NCBI GenBank assembly: GCA_015494155.1
Contig: WGBU01000011.1
Coordinates: 874 to 64,873 of the forward strand
DNA length: 64,000 nt
Reading direction: 5' to 3'
DNA from: Deltaproteobacteria bacterium
GTDB taxonomy: Bacteria; Desulfobacterota; Dissulfuribacteria; Dissulfuribacterales; Dissulfuribacteraceae
The notes below the pieces were generated by a model. It was not told the origin of the DNA and ran no database searches. It worked only from the letters and a program-made list of their open reading frames with translations. Shown one piece after another: positions 18,133 to 62,634 of this stretch (positions are counted from its first letter, which is position 1; each line of letters starts with the position of its first letter). The position numbers were made by a program, and so were the translations under genes.

Positions 18133-18882
18133 ATGAAGATCGCCATTTCCGGAAAGGGAGGGGTGGGAAAGAGCACTATAAGCGCCATCTTTTGTGAGGC
18201 GCTTAGAGAGTTGGGGAAGAGGGTGCTCGCCATCGACTCAGACCCAAGCCCACACCTTGCCCGTCTCTTGGGGTTCCCAGAACCAGAAAAGATTGTCCCC
18301 ATTGCCCAGATGACTGAACTCTTGGAAGAGAGGAGCGGGCGCCAGGGCCCCTTCTACAATCTCAATCCCAAGGTGGATGACCTGCCAGAGCGGTTCCTGC
18401 TAGAGCGCGACAGGATTAAGCTCATGGTGGTGGGGGCAGTGCAAAAGGGTGGTGGCGGGTGCGCCTGTGCAGAGAATACTGTATTGAGGAACCTTGTGAA
18501 TGCACTCCTCCTCGAACCAGAAGATGCCATTGTCATGGACATGGAGGCAGGGGTAGAGCACCTGGGGAGGGGGACCATCCAGAGTGTCGACCACCTGTTG
18601 ATCGTGGTTGAACCATACAAGGGAAGCCTCGAGACCGCAAAAAAGATCGAGAGGCTTGCCAGGGACATCGGGCTTGAGAATACGAGGATAGTGGCAAACA
18701 AGGTCTCCACAGACGAAGACCGTGAATTTATAGAAGAGGGCTTAGGTGTAAAGGTATTCCTCTCTATACCGTACGACCCTGAGCTTAGGGCAGCAGAGAG
18801 GAGGGGAGGGCGTTTGTATGAGTACTGCCCTGTTGCCATAAAAGAGCTAGTAAAGGATGCCATAAAGAGACTTGAGGGATGA
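18133..18882 (+). CDS. CooC-type (MinD/ParA-class) metallochaperone ATPase
   Basis: 249 aa. The deviant Walker A is ISGKGGVGKST, and GGGGCACAEN carries the CxC motif characteristic of CooC/AcsF Ni-insertion ATPases. No CODH gene lies nearby. Confidence 0.7.
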   Translation: MKIAISGKGGVGKSTISAIFCEALRELGKRVLAIDSDPSPHLARLLGFPEPEKIVPIAQMTELLEERSGRQGPFYNLNPKVDDLPERFLLERDRIKLMVVGAVQKGGGGCACAENTVLRNLVNALLLEPEDAIVMDMEAGVEHLGRGTIQSVDHLLIVVEPYKGSLETAKKIERLARDIGLENTRIVANKVSTDEDREFIEEGLGVKVFLSIPYDPELRAAERRGGRLYEYCPVAIKELVKDAIKRLEG

Positions 18883-19673
18883 AAGGAAGATTCACAGGGC
18901 TAAAGGACGTCCAGAGCCTACCAGACCATAGGAATATCCCACTAAACCGAGTGGGAATCAAAAACATCCGCTATCCCATAACGGTCCTGGATAAGGCCAG
19001 GGGTATGCAGCATACAGTGGCCAATATAAACATGTACGTCAACCTGCCCCACCAGTTTAAGGGCACCCACATGAGTCGTTTTGTGGAGATCTTAAACGAG
19101 TACAGGGGAAACATAAGTGTCAAGACCTTTCAAAAGATCCTCCAAGAGATGAAGGATAGGCTTTCTAGCGACGAGGCCCACCTAGAGGTGGAGTTCCCCT
19201 ACTTTATAGAAAAAAAGGCCCCTGTGACTGGGACCCCTGGACTTATGGAGTACTGGTGTGGATTACATGGGACTCTTCGGGAGCAACTGGACATGGTGGC
19301 ACTGGCCAAGGTGCCCGTTACCACAGTGTGCCCCTGCTCAAAGGAGATCTCAGACTTTGGGGCCCACAACCAGAGGGGAGAAGTGAGGGTCTGGGTGAGG
19401 TTCAGGGAGTTCATCTGGCTGGAAGACCTAATAGAGTGTGTTGAGTGCGCTGCCTCATGCCAGGTCTTTTCCATATTAAAGCGACCAGACGAGAAGTATG
19501 TCACAGAACTCGCCTACAGTAATCCCATGTTCGTGGAAGACGTGGTGAGAAACGTCTTTCTGGGGCTCAAGAAGTTGAAGGGCATCTCATGGTTTTACGT
19601 AGAGGCAGAGAACTTCGAGTCCATCCACAACCACTCTGCCTATGCGTGCGTCGAGGCGAGCAATGGCAAGTAG
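18879..19673 (+). CDS. folE2: GTP cyclohydrolase I type 2 (FolE2/MptA family)
   Basis: 264 aa. The motifs are LPDHRNIPLNRVGIKNIRYPI, HQFKGTHMSRF and VCPCSKEISDFGAHNQRG. There is an ATGA overlap with the upstream ATPase gene. Confidence 0.85.
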   Translation: MKGRFTGLKDVQSLPDHRNIPLNRVGIKNIRYPITVLDKARGMQHTVANINMYVNLPHQFKGTHMSRFVEILNEYRGNISVKTFQKILQEMKDRLSSDEAHLEVEFPYFIEKKAPVTGTPGLMEYWCGLHGTLREQLDMVALAKVPVTTVCPCSKEISDFGAHNQRGEVRVWVRFREFIWLEDLIECVECAASCQVFSILKRPDEKYVTELAYSNPMFVEDVVRNVFLGLKKLKGISWFYVEAENFESIHNHSAYACVEASNGK

Positions 19674-55510: not shown

Positions 55511-56379
55511 TCAGATCTCTCGTAAGAGAAGGGGTAGAACTCCTCTCCACAAGGCTTTCGATAGACGAGGCCCGTCTCGACTCAGAGTTACTGCTCGCCT
55601 ACACCCTTGGGGTGGATCGTTTTCACCTCTACACCCACGACCTTAATGAGCGTGTAGGTGCCAAGGAAGAGGAACGCTTTAGGGGATTTCTCAAAAGGCG
55701 CCTGGCTGGAGAACCCTTGGCCTACATAGTGGGCGAAAAGGAATTCTGGTCAAGGCCATTTAAGGTGGGAAGTGGCTGTCTCATACCAAGGCCAGAGACA
55801 GAGCTTGTGGTAGAGGAGGCATTGAACTTCCTCAGGGATTATCCCCGCAAAAGACCTCGGATATTGGATCTAGGTACTGGTAGTGGTTGTATAGCTATAA
55901 CCATAGCCCTAGAGCTCTCTGGCTGGGGGCGGGATATTGCGCCCCTTGTCCTTGCTTCGGACATCTCCTGGAAGGCACTGGCCTACGCCAAGGAAAATAC
56001 CCTACTTTTGGGGGCAGGTAGCTGGGTCACACCCATATTGTGCAACTGGATGGAGTGTTTCAGCAAAGACTCTTTGGACATCATCGTATCCAACCCACCA
56101 TATATTGGAGAAGGCGAAAGGGCCACTCTCCAAGAGGAGCTCGGATTCGAGCCCCAGGATGCGCTCTTTTCAGGAGATGACGGCCTATTTCATATAAAAA
56201 AGACCGTAAAAGAGGCCCATTCTCGTCTGGTCAAAGGCGGCATACTCGTTTTAGAGCTTGGTATTGGCCAGGCCAGGAGACTAATGGAGGAAGAACGCCT
56301 CCTCCTCGAGAGGTACCAGGGCTACTGGACGGCAAAGGACCTTTTGGGGATAGAAAGGGTAATTGTCCTACAAAAGTAA
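55510..56379 (+). CDS. prmC: Release-factor glutamine N5-methyltransferase PrmC/HemK (start codon unresolved)
   Basis: The motifs are NPPY (IVSNPPYI) and SAM-binding ILDLGTGSGCIA. HemK-like N-terminal coding (LDSELLLAYTLG) lies upstream of the first canonical start, GTG 55612. 55510 (ATC) is a tentative 5' limit. Confidence 0.8.
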   Translation: MRSLVREGVELLSTRLSIDEARLDSELLLAYTLGVDRFHLYTHDLNERVGAKEEERFRGFLKRRLAGEPLAYIVGEKEFWSRPFKVGSGCLIPRPETELVVEEALNFLRDYPRKRPRILDLGTGSGCIAITIALELSGWGRDIAPLVLASDISWKALAYAKENTLLLGAGSWVTPILCNWMECFSKDSLDIIVSNPPYIGEGERATLQEELGFEPQDALFSGDDGLFHIKKTVKEAHSRLVKGGILVLELGIGQARRLMEEERLLLERYQGYWTAKDLLGIERVIVLQK

Positions 56380-56538
56380 AATATTCATTCCCATAAAGTG
56401 GGTTTCTAGCAGTTTGATAAACCCTCCTTTACATTTAACCGTAAATTTGATAGATAGTTTTATATTAATATACAAATAAAATTGTAGAAAAAATTATATT
56501 CAACACTTCTCTTTTTATTGCTTTTGGAGACGATATAG

Positions 56539-57732
56539 GTGGGCGAAAGCGGGCCATTATCTCCTACAATCTTGACAATAGGTAGCCTCAAGGGAGGCAT
56601 AGGGAAGTCCACACTTGCCCTAAATCTGGCCCAGGGCCTCTCCCGTTTGGGGAAGAAGGTGCTCCTTATAGACCTCAACCCATCTAGCAGACACACCTTG
56701 GATCGTAGCGATAAGGGAGGTTCTCCCCAAGGTATGGTGCAGTTGTTGAAGGGCATGGCCACGCCCTCGTCTATTCTATGCCATGTGACCTTAGATGATG
56801 AATATGGATTTCACATGGTCTCCACCCGGGTATCCACACCAAATGAGGCGCTCTTTTTTGAGAAGCAAGCTATGGATCACAAGGTGCCTCCTCTCGTTGA
56901 ACAGCTTTCAAGGGGATTTGAAGTGGTGTTACTGGATGCGCCATCAGGGCTTGGTAGTGTGGCCAAGGCCGCTTTGGAATCGAGCCACTGGGCATTTGCA
57001 GTCTCTACGTGTGAGGCAGAGACCTTGAGGGCCCTGCCCTTGTATACCACCCTGATTTCATGGATCAGGGTGCACAGAAATAGGTTGCTCAACTTTGGCG
57101 GTGTCCTGATCCAGAAGTTCGATAATCATTCAAAGATACAAGACACCATTTGCACATCACTTACCAAGAGGTTGGGGACCATATTTTTGAACACCAAGGT
57201 CCCCTTGGATCAACGTTTCGAGGTGGCAGCACTCCGATCTATTCCTTTATGGAGATTGCCAAGGGCGGAGGACCTAGTCGGTGTATTTGAAGAACTGGCC
57301 CAGGAGATCCTGGACATCCTCTTCAATAAGGAGGCCCGTGATGCCCTATCGCAACAGATTGACCATATCTCAGGGCATACCCAATGGCTAGAATCGCAAT
57401 TGGGCGCCATATGCAGGGAGTATGGTCTGGAGTGCGCCATAGTGTCAGATGGTCTGGGGTTTCCCATTGTCCATTACAATATAGGAGAGGGTGCAGAGCT
57501 ATTTGCTGCCTTTGGTCCCTTGGCAGGAGATACCATGGGGAGGGCAGTAGACATGCTAGACCTCGGCCAGGTAGACCAGATGGTATTGGGAATAGGTGAT
57601 CTAAAGGTGCTCCTCGTAAAGAGGCTAGAGTCAGAGAAAGAAAACTATTATTTCTTGGCCCTATTGCCCAAGGGGTTTGAGTGGCGTCAAGGCTTAAGTG
57701 CGTCTATATCCCGTTTAGTGGACGGACTCTAG
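56539..57732 (+). CDS. ParA/MinD-class ATPase fused to a C-terminal Roadblock/LC7-like domain
   Basis: 397 aa with a GTG start. The deviant Walker A is GSLKGGIGKST and Walker B is VVLLDAPSG. The C-terminal ~110 aa (ECAIVSDGLGFPIV..GDLKVLLVKR..YYFLALLP) have a Roadblock-like pattern. Confidence 0.65.
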   Translation: MGESGPLSPTILTIGSLKGGIGKSTLALNLAQGLSRLGKKVLLIDLNPSSRHTLDRSDKGGSPQGMVQLLKGMATPSSILCHVTLDDEYGFHMVSTRVSTPNEALFFEKQAMDHKVPPLVEQLSRGFEVVLLDAPSGLGSVAKAALESSHWAFAVSTCEAETLRALPLYTTLISWIRVHRNRLLNFGGVLIQKFDNHSKIQDTICTSLTKRLGTIFLNTKVPLDQRFEVAALRSIPLWRLPRAEDLVGVFEELAQEILDILFNKEARDALSQQIDHISGHTQWLESQLGAICREYGLECAIVSDGLGFPIVHYNIGEGAELFAAFGPLAGDTMGRAVDMLDLGQVDQMVLGIGDLKVLLVKRLESEKENYYFLALLPKGFEWRQGLSASISRLVDGL

Positions 57733-57739
57733 GGGTGAA

Positions 57740-58375
57740 TCAGGCATTAAAGCCAGGGTGTTCAATGAGATAGCAACACATGTGAGTCTCAAGGATATCC
57801 ATGACAATGCCCTGGTCAACGCCTGCCTCCTCGATCCATCTTATTGCAAGGCCCAGTCGGCCATCACTCGACTTACAGCCCAACTGGTAGATCTTTAGGG
57901 GTCTGCCTGCAATCTCTATCTTTTTGCCAAGGGCACTCCGTATGGACTGGTGTACAGCACAAAATGGGCTCACCCCTGCACCTTCGCCAATCCTCAGCTT
58001 GTTGGATATGAGGGTGGGCTTGTTGAATTCTGATGTAATCTGCTGGAAACCCTCGGGTAGCCTGTTGAACACCTCAAGATAATCTTTGATGGAAGGTGCA
58101 AAGGGACAGCTCTTTAGTCCAAAGATCCCATCCTTCACGTGGAAAGAGACCCCTTCTACCCTGGCTATGGGATTTGACATCTCAGGGATTGACGCCAGAT
58201 ATTCCTCCACTGTGTCAAAATGGGTGCTTGCCACCATGTTCGCTGCATTAAGTGCATTTCTGATGAGTACACCCTTTGCGCTGGCAGCACCGTTTTGTCC
58301 AAGTATCACGTTTATCATGTCGAGAAAACTGATGTGTGCTATGTCCAAGATCTTCTGTGCCATGTTCTCCTCCAT
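57740..58375 (-). CDS. Cys-containing protein of unknown function (faint V4R-like flavour)
   Basis: 211 aa with Cys in KSCPF, SPFCAVH, LGCKS and HMCCYL. It lies 18 nt downstream of the DUF4388-Roadblock gene on the same strand. Confidence 0.45.
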   Translation of the reverse strand: MEENMAQKILDIAHISFLDMINVILGQNGAASAKGVLIRNALNAANMVASTHFDTVEEYLASIPEMSNPIARVEGVSFHVKDGIFGLKSCPFAPSIKDYLEVFNRLPEGFQQITSEFNKPTLISNKLRIGEGAGVSPFCAVHQSIRSALGKKIEIAGRPLKIYQLGCKSSDGRLGLAIRWIEEAGVDQGIVMDILETHMCCYLIEHPGFNA

Positions 58376-58393
58376 GTAGATGTTTTGATTTGG

Positions 58394-59203
58394 CTAAATG
58401 GCCGCTACTTCCTGGATCTCTTTTGCGTGTTTCCTGATCTTCAACCTGATAAGCCCCAGGTTGGAATCTGGGTCAGCCACAATCACCAGAAATGCCTCGT
58501 CTCCCACTGGGGCGAGCATGACAGGTCCCTTCTCATACTCGATCATGCTCAATGACATGGGGCCCTTGCCCAGTTGTTGACCCATGCTTTCCGAGGCGCC
58601 AAACCCACTCGATGCAATGGCGCCTATCATCTCCACGTCCAGGCCACTGGTGGCAATGCTCTCTACCAAAAATCCATCCCTGCCAACGAGACATGCGGTG
58701 TTGACCCCTGGGATCTCTGTAAAGTGGTTAAGTAGTTTCCTGATCTCAGACATGCCTTCGTCCTCCTTTTTATTATGGTTTGAGTCCCAATTAGGGACCA
58801 TCTCGCGCGGCGTGCACTCCTTGGGGCGTGTTTCCTTTAGGTTGAATTCGATCTTTTCGATGTCCATTAAGAGCTCTTCTGCGGGACGACTCTCTTCGTC
58901 CCGCCTCCTGGCCGCCTCTATCAAGATGGCAGACACATTGGTCTTTATGGTGTGTGGCACAGATTGGGGGAGTCCAACATTTTTCACCTTTCCATCTTTA
59001 AATTTGAGGATTTCATACATGGCCTCTTCACCTTGAAGACCTTCGAATTCTGCATGTATTACCTCTCCCCCTAAAAAGTAGATGGTCCCTTGCCTGCCTT
59101 CGGAACTCACCTCCAAGGCACAGTTGGCCAGAGAAAGTGTCTGTAGCTGAATGAGGTCGATAAGGTCTATGCCAGATATTAAGCCATCAAATTTTTTTGT
59201 CAT
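58394..59203 (-). CDS. DUF4388 (PATAN-like) domain fused to an MglB-type Roadblock/LC7 domain
   Basis: 269 aa. The N-terminus is GIDLIDLIQLQTLSLANCALEV..GTIYFLGGEVIHAEFEGLQGEEAMYEILKF. The C-terminus is ACLVGRDGFLVES..LVIVADPDSNLGLIRLKIRKHAKEI, close to the MglB tail SLGLVRLRIKKASDEL (from memory). Confidence 0.7.
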   Translation of the reverse strand: MTKKFDGLISGIDLIDLIQLQTLSLANCALEVSSEGRQGTIYFLGGEVIHAEFEGLQGEEAMYEILKFKDGKVKNVGLPQSVPHTIKTNVSAILIEAARRRDEESRPAEELLMDIEKIEFNLKETRPKECTPREMVPNWDSNHNKKEDEGMSEIRKLLNHFTEIPGVNTACLVGRDGFLVESIATSGLDVEMIGAIASSGFGASESMGQQLGKGPMSLSMIEYEKGPVMLAPVGDEAFLVIVADPDSNLGLIRLKIRKHAKEIQEVAAI

Positions 59204-59445
59204 TTTTTATGTGCTTGCCGCTAAGACCTATTGCCAACTAAAAGCGGTAGTCAAAACGCAATATCTGTCTTTATTCATCGGTAATGAATCAAGATTACTT
59301 TAATAGATAATGGATTGTACCAGTTAAGATTTGTTAATAATTATTTTTTATCTAAGTAATGAGTAGGTCAAAAAATGGATCTTTTGGATGAGGTGGAAGG
59401 TATTTACTGAGATGTTGGGGTTTTTTAGGGGCATATAGTAGGCAA

Positions 59446-59469
59446 TAAAAAAAGGGGGCTAAGCCCCCC
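59446..59469 (-). terminator. Intrinsic terminator after rpsU
   Basis: The minus strand reads GGGGGGC-tta-GCCCCC followed by TTTTTTT, 8 nt after the rpsU stop. Confidence 0.7.
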
Positions 59470-59476
59470 TTTTGTC

Positions 59477-59671
59477 TTAACCTCTTCTACGTCTGGCCTT
59501 GCGACGCCTTCTTTCAGCCTCTTGCATCTTGCGACGACGCTTTACGCTGGGCTTTTCATAAAAGCGTCTCATCTTTAGCTCTTTCTGCAGGCCATCAAGC
59601 TGCATCTTCTTCTTGAGGGCCTTAAGAGCCTTTTCCAGGTTGTCATCCTGGACCTCTACGACGATAGCCAA
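59477..59671 (-). CDS. rpsU: 30S ribosomal protein S21
   Basis: 64 aa with a TTG start. The middle is [24 protein letters not shown], followed by a very basic C-terminus. Confidence 0.9.
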
Positions 59672-59849: not shown

Positions 59850-60362
59850 CTAGAAGTATTCGGCGCTAAGAATGGTGTTTAACAATTCGTCCATGGACAT
59901 TGTTTCAGAACCCGAGCTCCTACAAATAAACTGAGAAGAGTGTTGTGCGTTAACTTGTCCATTAATGACAGTACCAGTAACACTTAAAGTGCCAGAGCAT
60001 GTGACCGAACGGGTGTTGGCCTCCCCTTCAGAATAAGTTACTGAGAGGCCGCTAGTGATGATAGAGAGGTTCAGTGTCCCATTGGTAAGGGGTAAGGCGC
60101 CACTCAGATCAGTTGTACCAGAAATGGTCTTGGTTTCATCAGAATCGATGTAGCTACAATTTTCAAACGAAATGGCTGCATCTATTGCAGAGCTAAGTGT
60201 CTCATAGGTCCCCTTGATAGCCAACTGCCCTCCACCAGGGCATGGAATGGTAAAATCCAATGGAATTGTGCCTGGGGTTGACTGGGCCATGGTCGAGTCT
60301 TGCCAGGACATAAGTCCAAAAAATACGAGTGCAAAGATCGTTATTAGCTGCTTCATCTCCAC
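59850..60362 (-). CDS. Secreted Thr/Ser/Gly-rich protein of unknown function
   Basis: 170 aa. The signal peptide is LITIFALVFFGLMSWQDSTMA, and the mature part looks beta-rich with 5 Cys. I recognise no family. Confidence 0.5.
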   Translation of the reverse strand: MEMKQLITIFALVFFGLMSWQDSTMAQSTPGTIPLDFTIPCPGGGQLAIKGTYETLSSAIDAAISFENCSYIDSDETKTISGTTDLSGALPLTNGTLNLSIITSGLSVTYSEGEANTRSVTCSGTLSVTGTVINGQVNAQHSSQFICRSSGSETMSMDELLNTILSAEYF

Positions 60363-60555
60363 ACCTCCTTCCAGGGGTTATCTTTAGAAGGGCCGCTAAA
60401 ATCAGTATAGGATTTGGACCGTCTCCAGTCAAATGGTTAACAATGTGCCAATTCCATTCCAATGATGGCCGTTTATGCCCCTTGACGCCTTTAAACGGCC
60501 CTAATATGTTGAACCCTTGACAAAATCAACTCATTGGGAAGGGAGAGTAGATGCC

Positions 60556-62634
60556 ATGGACTGCACCAAGGTAAGAAACATCGCCATTGTATCACAAAAC
60601 GGTAGCGGTAAGACTTCACTGGCAGAGGCCATGCTGTTTACAGCCAAGGCCACCAAGAGGTTGGGCAGGGTGGATGACAAGACCTCTTGTCTCGACTTTG
60701 AGCCAGAGGAGCAGAAGAGGGGGCTCACCATCTCCACGGCCTTTCACGATCTAAAGTGGCAGAAGAACCATGTCTTTCTCATGGACACCCCAGGCGAAGA
60801 CAACTTCATTGCCGAGGCCAAGATTGCACTCAGGGTGGCAGACAATGTGGTATTTGTGGTGGATGCAGTGGACCCAGTCAAGCCCCAGACGCTCAAGGTA
60901 TGGTCCATGATCAAGGAGGCTGGTATCCCTGTGATGTTTTTTGTCAACAAGATGGACAAGGAGAGGGCAGACTTTAAGAAGTCACTCGATGCAATACAGG
61001 AGGCCCTTGGGGTCCGCACCGTGCCCCTTGCGCTGCCCATTGGCAAGGAGGCCTCGTTTAAGGGTGTTGTGGACCTCGTAAAGATGAAGGCCTTTGAGTT
61101 CAAGGACGAATCAGGGAATCCACAGCCCATAGACATCCCGTCTGATGTGGCTGATGAGGCAGAGGAGTTGAGGAACAACCTCATAGAGTTTGCCGCTGAG
61201 TCAGAGGATGAATTGCTGGAGAAATTCCTCGAGGGAGGTGAACTCACCCAGGAAGAGATACTGAGCGGTCTAAAGAGCGGTGTAAACGAGGTGCGTTTTG
61301 TCCCAGTGGCCGTGGGCTCTGCCCTTAAAAATATGGGGGTCTCCACACTCTTAGACCTCATAGTAGGGCTTTTGCCATCGCCTGTAGAGCGTGGTGCAGT
61401 CACAGGAAAGAATCCCAAGACAAATGAGGAGGAGACCAGGGAGCCATCGCCAGATGCACCCTTCTCAGGCCTGGTCTTCAAGACCATGATAGACCCTTAT
61501 GCAGGGAGGTTGTCCATCCTCAGGGTCTATTCTGGTACGCTCACACCAGATGGTACCATCTACTGTCCCAACAAGGATTCTCAAGAGCGATATTCTCAGA
61601 TATTCATCCTAGAGGGCAAGGAACAAAAGCCTGTGGAAGAGGCGGGTCCAGGCATGATCGTTGCCATCCAGAAGCTAAAGGAGGTCTCTACTGGAGACAC
61701 CCTCTGCTCACCCCAGGAGCCCATTGTCTATGATTTTGTGGAACTCCCCACACCAGTGCTCACCTATGCCCTCAAACCCAAGTCCAGGGGTGATGAGGAG
61801 AAGATCAATCAGGCACTTTCAAGGTTACAGGAGGAAGACCCCACCCTGGTGGTCTCAAGGGATCAGCAGACCAACGAGCTGCTCATCTCTGGGAATGGTC
61901 AGATCCACATAGATGCCACAGTGTCCAAGATGAAGGAGAAGTTTGGTGTAAATGTGGACCTCACACTCCCCAAGATCCCCTACAGAGAGACCATAAAGGG
62001 GGTAAAGAAGGCCGTGATCTACAGACACAAGAAGCAGACCGGTGGGGCAGGCCAGTTTGCAGAAGTCCACTTCGACATCTCACCACTTAAGCGCGGAGAG
62101 GGCTTTGAGTTCGAAGAGGCCCTCGTAGGAATGAACGTACCCAGAAACTTCGTGCCAGCAGTAGAGAAGGGTATCCAGGAGGCCATGCAATCAGGGCCTT
62201 TGGCAGGTTTTCCAGTGGTGGACGTGAAGGTGCGTTTCTATGACGGTAAGAGCCACGAGGTGGATTCCTCTGAAATGGCCTTTAAGATTGCGGCGATCCA
62301 GTGTTTCAAGAAGGGGGTATTGGAGGCCAAGCCCACCCTGCTTGAACCCATCTATAAGCTCACCATATATGTTCCAGACGAAAACGTAGGTGATGTGATC
62401 GGTGACCTCAACTCCAGGAGGGGCAAGGTCATGGGCATGGAACCAGCAGGTGCTGGGATGCAGGTTGTACAGGCACTAGTACCGCTGGCCGAAGTACAGC
62501 GATATGTACTTGACCTAAACTCCATGACCCAGGGACGCGGTACCTTCCAGATGGAGTTCTCACACTACGATGAGGTCCCGCCCAACATAGCGGAAAAGAT
62601 CATTCAGCAGGCAAAGGAAGGGGATGAGGAATAG
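60556..62634 (+). CDS. Elongation factor G paralogue with a divergent G domain
   Basis: All five EF-G domains are recognisable (RNIAIV..GSGKTS, RGLTIS, DTPGEDNF, VNKMDK, domain IV/V motifs). I use ATG 60556 (MDCTKVRNIAIV); the track starts at 60517. Confidence 0.85.
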   Translation: MDCTKVRNIAIVSQNGSGKTSLAEAMLFTAKATKRLGRVDDKTSCLDFEPEEQKRGLTISTAFHDLKWQKNHVFLMDTPGEDNFIAEAKIALRVADNVVFVVDAVDPVKPQTLKVWSMIKEAGIPVMFFVNKMDKERADFKKSLDAIQEALGVRTVPLALPIGKEASFKGVVDLVKMKAFEFKDESGNPQPIDIPSDVADEAEELRNNLIEFAAESEDELLEKFLEGGELTQEEILSGLKSGVNEVRFVPVAVGSALKNMGVSTLLDLIVGLLPSPVERGAVTGKNPKTNEEETREPSPDAPFSGLVFKTMIDPYAGRLSILRVYSGTLTPDGTIYCPNKDSQERYSQIFILEGKEQKPVEEAGPGMIVAIQKLKEVSTGDTLCSPQEPIVYDFVELPTPVLTYALKPKSRGDEEKINQALSRLQEEDPTLVVSRDQQTNELLISGNGQIHIDATVSKMKEKFGVNVDLTLPKIPYRETIKGVKKAVIYRHKKQTGGAGQFAEVHFDISPLKRGEGFEFEEALVGMNVPRNFVPAVEKGIQEAMQSGPLAGFPVVDVKVRFYDGKSHEVDSSEMAFKIAAIQCFKKGVLEAKPTLLEPIYKLTIYVPDENVGDVIGDLNSRRGKVMGMEPAGAGMQVVQALVPLAEVQRYVLDLNSMTQGRGTFQMEFSHYDEVPPNIAEKIIQQAKEGDEE

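Follow-up and report, generated by a model that had tools for sequence, protein, structure and literature searches.

A ParA/MinD ATPase with a Roadblock-like tail in a proposed PATAN-Roadblock signalling or positioning module

Roadblock/longin domains are regarded as a universal platform for small GTPases, with MglB, Ragulator, TRAPP and the signal recognition particle (SRP) receptor as examples, and a locus that appears to encode two Roadblock-type proteins and no such GTPase raises the question of which nucleotide switch they serve. One such locus lies within a 64,000-nucleotide (nt) stretch of the genome of a Deltaproteobacteria bacterium (family Dissulfuribacteraceae, contig WGBU01000011.1), which was analysed over its whole length and is called the window below. 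Here three genes between prmC and rpsU encode a ParA/MinD-type ATPase with a C-terminal tail, a protein that joins a PATAN (DUF4388) domain to a canonical Roadblock/LC7 domain, and a Cys-rich protein belonging to a family about 205 amino acids (aa) long. A first-pass annotation made from the sequence alone had placed three open reading frames (ORFs) at these positions, and all were found exactly there. We propose, with a probability of roughly 0.45, that the three genes form one conserved signalling or positioning module organised around Roadblock-Roadblock pairing, with the ParA/MinD ATPase as its nucleotide switch, and we infer that this ATPase takes the place of a Ras-like GTPase. The genes and their domains are as follows.

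56539-57732, + strand: ParA/MinD ATPase-Roadblock gene, 397 aa, ORF with a GTG start
56566-57267, + strand: ParA/MinD ATPase domain, aa 10-243 (Pfam, motifs, model)
57268-57369, + strand: helical linker from ATPase to Roadblock, aa 244-277 (model helices H244-262 and H264-295)
57370-57729, + strand: predicted divergent tail-type Roadblock/LC7 domain, aa 278-397 (model, hhalign, PDB profile match)
57740-58375, - strand: 205-aa-family gene, 211-aa ORF; the true start is probably Met5 at 58363, giving 207 aa
58394-59203, - strand: PATAN(DUF4388)-Roadblock gene, 269 aa, ORF
58892-59185, - strand: PATAN/DUF4388 domain, aa 7-104 (Pfam PF14332, 57.2 bits against a cut-off of 25)
58475-58738, - strand: canonical Roadblock/LC7 domain, aa 156-243 (Pfam PF03259, 55.3 bits against a cut-off of 23)

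The ATPase, its tail and the two neighbouring proteins

The assignment of the first gene to the ParA/MinD class, which the first-pass annotation had read from two motifs, holds. Two Pfam families were matched above threshold, AAA_31 (55.2 bits, cut-off 27) and CbiA (51.3 bits, cut-off 25.4), and both motifs are present, a deviant Walker A (SLKGGIGKST) with the signature Lys18 as well as K23, and a Walker B (VVLLDAPSG) with D133. The AlphaFold2 model of the 397-aa fusion (predicted local distance difference test score, pLDDT, 84.9; predicted template-modelling score 0.82) has a Soj-like ATPase domain; the best Foldseek matches are Soj 1wcv (E 7e-15, template-modelling (TM) score on the target 0.85), ParA, MinD, McdA and BcsQ. 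No named ParA/MinD subfamily was reached in NCBIfam (BcsQ 47 bits against a cut-off of 158, MinD 46 against 213, ParA_partition 43 against 180). The loci scanned in the survey described below hold 23 fusion genes, the window's own included, and Walker A and B are intact in all of them (22 loci plus the window). Judged by these motifs, the ATPase is predicted to be catalytically intact. Fusion homologs P0127 and P0129 carry a degenerate Walker A (SQQDGIGKT and SRKPGIGKTG) without the KGG signature, and may on this basis be pseudo-ATPase variants of the family.

The linker that follows is gapped in the alignment and varies in length among homologs. The tail beyond it was the least certain part of the first-pass annotation, which had seen a Roadblock-like pattern there, and three approaches that agree independently, namely model topology, profile-profile comparison and a profile search of the PDB, identify it as a divergent Roadblock domain and so bear that reading out. 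Structure prediction, named as a check in that annotation, gave the alpha-beta-beta-alpha-beta-beta-beta-alpha topology of a Roadblock domain, with pLDDT 84-93 in the tail blocks (elements H264-295, E299-304, E309-313, H319-340, E347-352, E356-364, E369-377 and H383-396). When the tail profile was aligned by hhalign with a profile of 72 Roadblock domains taken from PATAN-Roadblock proteins, the two matched in register over 95 columns at E 3.1e-5, against E 0.03-0.8 for the controls (unrelated, reversed and ten column-shuffled profiles). In the PDB the top match of the tail profile is 7f8f, a 'Robl_LC7 domain-containing protein' (E 0.0015); Rv3364c and dynein roadblock light chains come next, and Roadblock proteins account for seven of the nine PDB matches listed.

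Other comparisons gave no such match. A Pfam scan of the tail returned nothing at E up to 1, the Robl_LC7 threshold included, and several relatives of the tail reach 14-18.5 bits on Robl_LC7 or LAMTOR5, short of the cut-off of 23. The neighbour's Roadblock domain was not recovered when the tail was compared with it by BLASTP (E > 3), and a single-sequence phmmer search of the PDB yielded haemoglobin matches alone, which were judged spurious and rejected. The top 50 Foldseek matches of the whole fusion model are exclusively ParA, Soj and MinD, the ATPase domain dominating the match list.

The number of relatives depends on the search. A word-indexed search, the prefilter of which was too coarse, returned one full-length relative of the fusion and four proteins for the tail profile, and an exhaustive HMMER search with the tail alone returned 42 cluster representatives. 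About seven of these are fusions of ~400 aa and the rest are stand-alone proteins of 125-260 aa with the domain at the C-terminus. Common to all that were found is the motif MC.RGGF.GAV[VI]AD..GLPLA with an invariant Cys and Asp, which in the window are C292 and D304; G307 is near-invariant.

The PATAN-Roadblock protein needs no such remote comparison. The DUF4388 signature that had been noted at its N-terminus is a full Pfam match (DUF4388, also PatA_N, E 2.2e-15), and its C-terminal domain belongs to Robl_LC7 (E 5.7e-15). The likeness to Myxococcus MglB that the first-pass annotation had drawn for this domain stands at the level of the family alone, as the NCBIfam MglB equivalog NF052242 is not reached (23 bits against a cut-off of 200). 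Pfam finds no REC domain on the window's protein, although REC is present on most of its orthologs (see below).

The third protein had been described as a 211-aa orphan with six Cys, including a CC pair, and with no nameable family. Five Cys were counted (C90, C139, C167, C200 and C201), the last two forming the pair. It is no orphan, as the search returned at least 363 relatives of ~205 aa, with 47-61% identity, from Desulfobulbales/Thermodesulfobacteriota, Nitrospirota/Thermodesulfovibrionales, Anaeromyxobacter and Polyangia. That no family could be named is borne out by Pfam, NCBIfam, PDB sequence and PDB profile searches of the protein and its family, which gave no match, and none of the relatives found has a Pfam domain or a name in its source. 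Conservation is high, with a mean column identity of 69% in the family alignment; C90, H142, C167, C200 and C201 do not vary among 65 sequences, C139 is conserved in 98% of them, and a GEGAGVSP loop is invariant in a 35-member alignment (A3).

The AlphaFold2 model of this protein (pLDDT 88.8) has no significant Foldseek match in the PDB; the weak ones are PoxR, DmpR and MopR, which are V4R-type phenol-sensor domains, and BcsD/AxCeSD (E 0.45-10, TM 0.31-0.41). Both PoxR-type V4R domains and cellulose synthase subunit D are reported to lie structurally close to the TRAPPC3/V4R fold, which contains a Zn(Cys) site (PMC10933270). None of 35 members matches Pfam V4R (PF02830) at E up to 10, and we treat V4R/TRAPPC3 membership, suggested by the model, as a lead and not as a classification.

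Recurrence of the neighbourhood in fused and split form

How often the fusion and the three-gene neighbourhood recur, a question raised by the first-pass annotation, was addressed in 61 genome loci around members of the 205-aa family and four contigs (65), which with the window make 66 sources. Loci were annotated with custom hidden Markov models and an MglA probe, and the denominators given here are loci with enough flanking sequence. The pairing of Roadblock gene and 205-aa gene recurs most often: in 52/59 loci the 205-aa gene immediately follows a PATAN-Roadblock gene. In two loci without it, L038 and L052, a stand-alone canonical Robl_LC7 gene precedes the 205-aa gene instead, and since it fills in for the PATAN-Roadblock gene there, 'Roadblock gene, then 205-aa gene' is the invariant rule. 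The 205-aa protein is thus the component most tightly linked to Roadblock, which the first-pass annotation had overlooked.

The ParA-Roadblock fusion is found within 10 kb, usually adjacent, in 21/49 loci, all of them from Desulfobulbales-type lineages, and is co-directional or convergent to the 205-aa pair. At the position of the ParA-Roadblock gene, four Desulfocapsa-type loci have a stand-alone Roadblock-like gene of 132-135 aa that is convergent to the 205-aa gene. Its products have no Pfam match and align with the tail profile at E 1e-3 (hhalign). All four genes are on the - strand:

L037:6416-6814, - strand: Roadblock-like gene
L045:10690-11088, - strand: Roadblock-like gene
L048:10642-11040, - strand: Roadblock-like gene
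L056:10667-11074, - strand: Roadblock-like gene

The conserved neighbourhood spans Desulfobulbales/Thermodesulfobacteriota, Nitrospirota and Myxococcota, and no other family occurs in more than six of the surveyed loci. This recurrence across phyla argues that the three genes are functionally linked.

Most loci also carry regulatory input. The PATAN-Roadblock protein has a REC domain in 46/59 loci, in the order REC-PATAN-Roadblock, and farther upstream lie a histidine kinase in 39/51 loci and an NtrC-type sigma54 regulator in 34/51. A sigma54 promoter (TGGCA[CT]-N5-TTGC[AT]) precedes the PATAN-Roadblock gene in 27/59 loci, compared with ~4% of random windows, and near-consensus examples (TGGCAC-N5-TTGCA; for instance L053, L060, L062 and L004) stand beside the kinase and the NtrC-type regulator. 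The window, like L001, L002 and L005, has neither REC nor histidine kinase, sigma54 regulator or sigma54 promoter; the best site before its PATAN-Roadblock gene scores 5 of 11, against at least 9 in the 27/59 related loci. The window has a reduced form of a module that is elsewhere tied to two-component and sigma54 regulation, a point that had also been overlooked. Variations in copy number occur in Nitrospirota, where the [REC-PATAN-Roadblock + 205-aa] pair is tandemly duplicated at L043:8611-12650, and a second REC-PATAN-Roadblock gene directly follows the 205-aa gene in L060, L062 and L063.

The stand-alone tail-type Roadblock proteins reveal a split form of the fusion. In 6/6 sampled cases their gene lies directly downstream of a separate ParA gene (267-278 aa) and overlaps it by ~25 nt. 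Where flanks suffice, the order is [histidine kinase], REC-PATAN, ParA and tail-type Roadblock, usually followed by a canonical Robl_LC7 gene (~121 aa); examples are L066:4296-7750 and L071:3490-8522. The split ParAs are 30-35% identical to the fused ATPase domain and score 233-263 bits on the family profile, compared with 26 bits for the window's other ParA-like ORF, which marks them out as its specific relatives. These split systems combine PATAN, ParA and two Roadblock types without a 205-aa gene, and the four domains PATAN, canonical Roadblock, ParA and tail-type Roadblock are thus seen in no fewer than three states of fusion. A fused and a split arrangement of the same parts (a Rosetta-stone pattern) is a classical signature of physically interacting partners and, as judged from gene order, argues for a physical partnership of ParA and Roadblock.

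Other features accompany the split form in L066-L073. The tail-type Roadblock partners begin with a conserved DSSELxEA..L peptide followed by a Pro/Ala-rich linker, the ParAs have an acidic tail ending in GLF, and the loci often also contain an ODP (Lactamase_B+ODP) protein, PAS proteins and a further REC(-PATAN-TPR) protein.

The same sources bear on the small GTPase. The first-pass annotation had found none encoded nearby, and this is upheld: no MglA-like or other small-GTPase ORF occurs in the 64-kb window, and of the 66 scanned sources just one has an MglA-like ORF within 10 kb. The MglA probe is validated by this one match, in L016, which Pfam identifies as Arf/Ras. This match belongs to a cluster (L016:1116-5532) with the order PATAN, MglB (164 aa), MglA (193 aa), PATAN plus a stand-alone Robl_LC7 gene; the cluster is separate, 4-9 kb upstream of a 205-aa gene that has no PATAN-Roadblock gene directly upstream. 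The further remark that Roadblock/MglB genes normally sit beside a GTPase makes more of its absence than the literature allows, in which 328/749 (44%) MglB homologs are classed as orphans uncoupled from MglA (PMC4316618). PATAN-MglB neighbourhoods have likewise been noted earlier (Makarova 2006, as related in PMC4316618). The surprise is tempered accordingly, as such neighbourhoods and orphan MglB homologs were already known.

Expression signals and flanking genes in the window

The flanks and signals of the module are listed here.

55612-56379: prmC, upstream flank of the three-gene module
56380-56538, + strand: AT-rich intergenic region, presumed promoter and ribosome-binding-site region of the ParA-Roadblock gene, GC content 0.335-0.34
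57733-57739: 7-nt spacer between the convergent stops (sequence read; TAG ends at 57732 and the reverse-strand stop begins at 57740)
59204-59449, - strand: AT-rich intergenic region upstream of the PATAN-Roadblock/205-aa operon, GC content 0.315-0.355
59450-59473, both strands: GC-rich hairpin, bidirectional terminator (terminator scan and sequence)
59477-59671: rpsU, downstream flank of the three-gene module

The AT-rich brackets of the first-pass annotation were recovered, with a GC content of 0.32-0.36 in both flanking non-coding stretches against ~0.50 in the genes. A GGAG lies ~9 nt ahead of the GTG start of the ParA-Roadblock gene, and a promoter scan of 56380-56538 reported no strong sigma70-like match. 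Ahead of the PATAN-Roadblock gene the scan found a sigma70-like match, TTGACC-17-AAAAAT, at 59371-59343. The hairpin at 59450-59473 ends rpsU and insulates the module. Sequence and terminator scan agree with the earlier description of convergent stops 7 nt apart, no terminator-like hairpin being found between them (57732/57740).

A sister contig encodes a 96%-identical ParA-Roadblock protein in identical synteny, and the remaining window is chromosomal housekeeping (FtsK, RNase G, ThrRS, PheT, rho, prfA, a second EF-G and MogA). The full-length EF-G paralog near the module (60517-62634, + strand, TTG start) has all five EF-G domains in Pfam and is a translation factor, not a Ras-like switch. 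Between rpsU and this gene lies an ORF of 170 aa (59850-60362, - strand) with a hydrophobic, signal-peptide-like N-terminus and no Pfam family. The window's second ParA/MinD-like ORF (18133-18882, + strand, 249 aa) is translationally coupled to a folE2-type GTP cyclohydrolase gene (18879-19673) and contains a GGGGCACAEN (CxC) motif, which we take to be CooC-like; on account of this motif and its score of 26 bits on the fusion-family ParA profile, it was rejected as part of the module. An anti-phage defence system was likewise considered and rejected, as PADLOC matched no system; the module proteins gave P-loop-level matches (PDC-M28B, aa 13-46) and a spurious Cmr5 match (E 0.0018).

Proposed mechanism, rival readings and known systems

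ParA/MinD ATPases switch by ATP-dependent dimerisation and require a partner that stimulates hydrolysis. Roadblock/longin domains form side-by-side dimers that serve as platforms for NTPases, and Rag GTPases have a C-terminal Roadblock domain of their own (PMC3747258). Because Roadblock dimers serve in this way, we propose Roadblock-Roadblock pairing here: the tail-type Roadblock of the ATPase would pair or stack with the canonical one of the PATAN protein, the two forming either a heterodimer or a pair of homodimers in a Rag-Ragulator-like arrangement. The ATP sandwich dimerisation of ParA and subsequent hydrolysis could then switch the assembly or the location of the PATAN adaptor, while the Roadblock platform might act as tether or activator of the ATPase, much as ParB, MinE and McdB do for ParA/MinD ATPases and MglB for MglA. 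The 205-aa protein would be a sensor subunit that binds metal or a ligand and is attached to the canonical Roadblock platform. Inputs would in most lineages arrive through phosphorylation of the REC domain of the PATAN-Roadblock protein and through sigma54 transcription controlled by the upstream histidine kinase/NtrC-type pair; in the lineage of the window these inputs would have been lost and the module is probably expressed constitutively. Cyanobacterial PATAN regulators bind the motor of type IV pili (bioRxiv 10.1101/2021.06.11.447907), and by analogy such a pilus, or some other polar machine, may be the target here.

Several observations weigh against this proposal. The homology of the tail to Roadblock is distant, with an hhalign probability of 73% and no Pfam match. 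None of the Nitrospirota loci has the ParA-Roadblock gene, and over half of the loci as a whole lack it; the PATAN-Roadblock/205-aa pair can thus do without the ATPase. In the window the ATPase gene is convergent to the other two and not co-transcribed with them. No type IV pilus, flagellar or chemotaxis genes recur in the surveyed neighbourhoods, and the canonical MglA/MglB/PATAN cluster in the related genome L016 makes a distant GTPase partner possible.

One alternative is a two-gene core, in which Roadblock and 205-aa protein form a sensor-adaptor (for redox or metal, as an example) at the output of a sigma54/two-component pathway and the ParA-Roadblock gene is an independent, lineage-specific neighbour. 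The pair is far more conserved than its adjacency to ParA (52/59 against 21/49 loci), Nitrospirota loci have the pair, the kinase, the sigma54 response regulator and the sigma54 promoter without ParA, the invariant Cys and His residues point to a metal or redox cofactor, and the window's ParA gene is convergent. We nevertheless find this reading improbable: ParA-Roadblock adjoins the pair in both orientations in many genomes, four loci have a stand-alone Roadblock-like gene in its position, and the split systems, which have no 205-aa gene, again unite two Roadblock types with PATAN and ParA, an argument that PATAN, ParA and Roadblock belong together. The L016 cluster, in turn, 7 kb from the 205-aa gene, would suit a PATAN-Roadblock protein that is an orphan MglB/MglC-like accessory of an MglA-type GTPase encoded elsewhere, with the ParA fusion as a separate add-on. 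MglC, a Roadblock paralog without a GTPase of its own, acts in the MglA module, and MglB homologs are often near PATAN proteins, 328/749 of them not adjacent to mglA (PMC4316618). This also appears quite unlikely, since the L016 source is the only one of the 66 with an MglA-like ORF within 10 kb, the conserved neighbours are ParA and the 205-aa protein and no GTPase, the C-terminus of the PATAN-Roadblock protein scores 23 bits on the MglB equivalog with its cut-off of 200, and the recurrent coupling of Roadblock to ParA by fusion or operon would be left unexplained.

An ordinary cargo-positioning system of the McdA/McdB, ParA/ParB or PomXYZ type deserves more weight, although we consider it somewhat unlikely as well. 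Here the tail would be the cognate adaptor, fused to its ATPase, tethering cargo and stimulating the ATPase on nucleoid or membrane with no GTPase-like switch logic, and the PATAN-Roadblock and 205-aa proteins would be cargo or landmark. The split form resembles a parA-parB pair, with its N-terminal peptide, Pro/Ala-rich disordered linker and dimerisation-type domain, and Soj, ParA and McdA are the nearest structures to the ATPase domain. The fusion, however, has no such peptide, and a partner joined covalently to its ATPase is unusual among diffusion-ratchet systems; in addition, no cargo genes (carboxysome, chemoreceptor array, plasmid) recur in the surveyed neighbourhoods. Moreover, this alternative differs from the proposed switch module mostly in emphasis, as a ParA partner that stimulates hydrolysis is a functional analogue of a GTPase-activating protein. 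We also entertain, as an unlikely extension, a bacterial counterpart of Ragulator-Rag and TRAPP in which ParA-Roadblock would dock on PATAN-Roadblock, itself bound by a Zn- or ligand-binding 205-aa subunit of V4R/Bet3 fold; if true, Roadblock platforms would regulate SIMIBI ATPases besides small GTPases, and a class of orphan MglB-like proteins would have found its partner.

If the switch module that we favour is real, Roadblock regulation extends from TRAFAC GTPases to SIMIBI ATPases, and ParA/MinD positioning gains a new class of partner protein. The conserved coupling to ParA/MinD, fused and split, provides a concrete candidate partner for one class of orphan Roadblock proteins. Two unannotated families, the tail-type Roadblock domain and the ~205-aa five-Cys protein, are defined as potential Pfam entries, and PATAN adaptors are tied to a sigma54/two-component circuit in sulfate-reducing and Nitrospirota lineages. 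The literature searched, the coverage of which left out Makarova 2006 (PATAN) and Koonin & Aravind 2000 (Roadblock), contains no link between Roadblock and ParA/MinD and reports a Roadblock fold for no ParA/MinD partner; in a survey of archaeal type IV pili, FleN/MinD ATPases and Roadblock proteins appear only as accessory genes distinct from each other.

Compared with known systems, the module falls outside MglAB, having no GTPase and scoring below the MglB equivalog, and outside every named ParA/MinD subfamily. In mglB-mglA the Roadblock gene comes before its partner gene, an order mirrored by that of the module. As in the MglA/MglB system of Myxococcus and Thermus, a Roadblock/LC7 protein is paired with a nucleotide switch and PATAN proteins recur in the neighbourhood (PMC4316618); unlike it, the module has no Ras-like GTPase, its SIMIBI ParA/MinD ATPase carries its own predicted Roadblock domain, and the gene after the Roadblock gene encodes a Cys-rich protein without a P-loop. 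With ParA/MinD ATPases and their partners (ParA-ParB, MinD-MinE, McdA-McdB, FlhG-FlhF, BcsQ-BcsR, PomZ-PomXY) it shares the deviant Walker A, the Soj-like fold and, in the split form, a small downstream partner gene encoding an N-terminal peptide, a disordered linker and a dimerising domain, whereas its partner domain has a predicted Roadblock fold that in the window is covalently fused, and it reaches none of their NCBIfam equivalogs. PatA-type PATAN-REC regulators of cyanobacteria (PatA, PixG, PixE, TaxP) likewise combine PATAN with REC, which most orthologs of the PATAN-Roadblock protein retain, and PATAN is implicated in the spatial control of machines via protein-protein contacts; the order in the module, however, is REC-PATAN-Roadblock, with REC missing from the window, and PatA regulators have no C-terminal Roadblock. 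The V4R/TRAPPC3 (Bet3) fold (PoxR, MopR, DmpR, Thor-TRAPPC3) provides the sole, weak fold matches of the 205-aa model, and the Bet3-fold subunit of TRAPP works on a longin/Roadblock platform (PMC3747258), but these matches reach E 0.45 at best with TM 0.37-0.41, V4R is not matched in Pfam and the Cys spacing differs. Finally, although the NTPase of the module is a dimerisation-dependent Walker-type ParA/MinD ATPase and not a TRAFAC small GTPase, and although the module is bacterial, tied to two-component and sigma54 regulation and by implication homologous in its Roadblock fold alone, it resembles Rag/Gtr with Ragulator/EGO in eukaryotes, and the Rag-like GTPase-Roadblock fusions of Asgard archaea, in placing an NTPase before a C-terminal Roadblock and in having further stand-alone or fused Roadblock proteins from which stacked platforms could be built (PMC3747258; PMC10933270).

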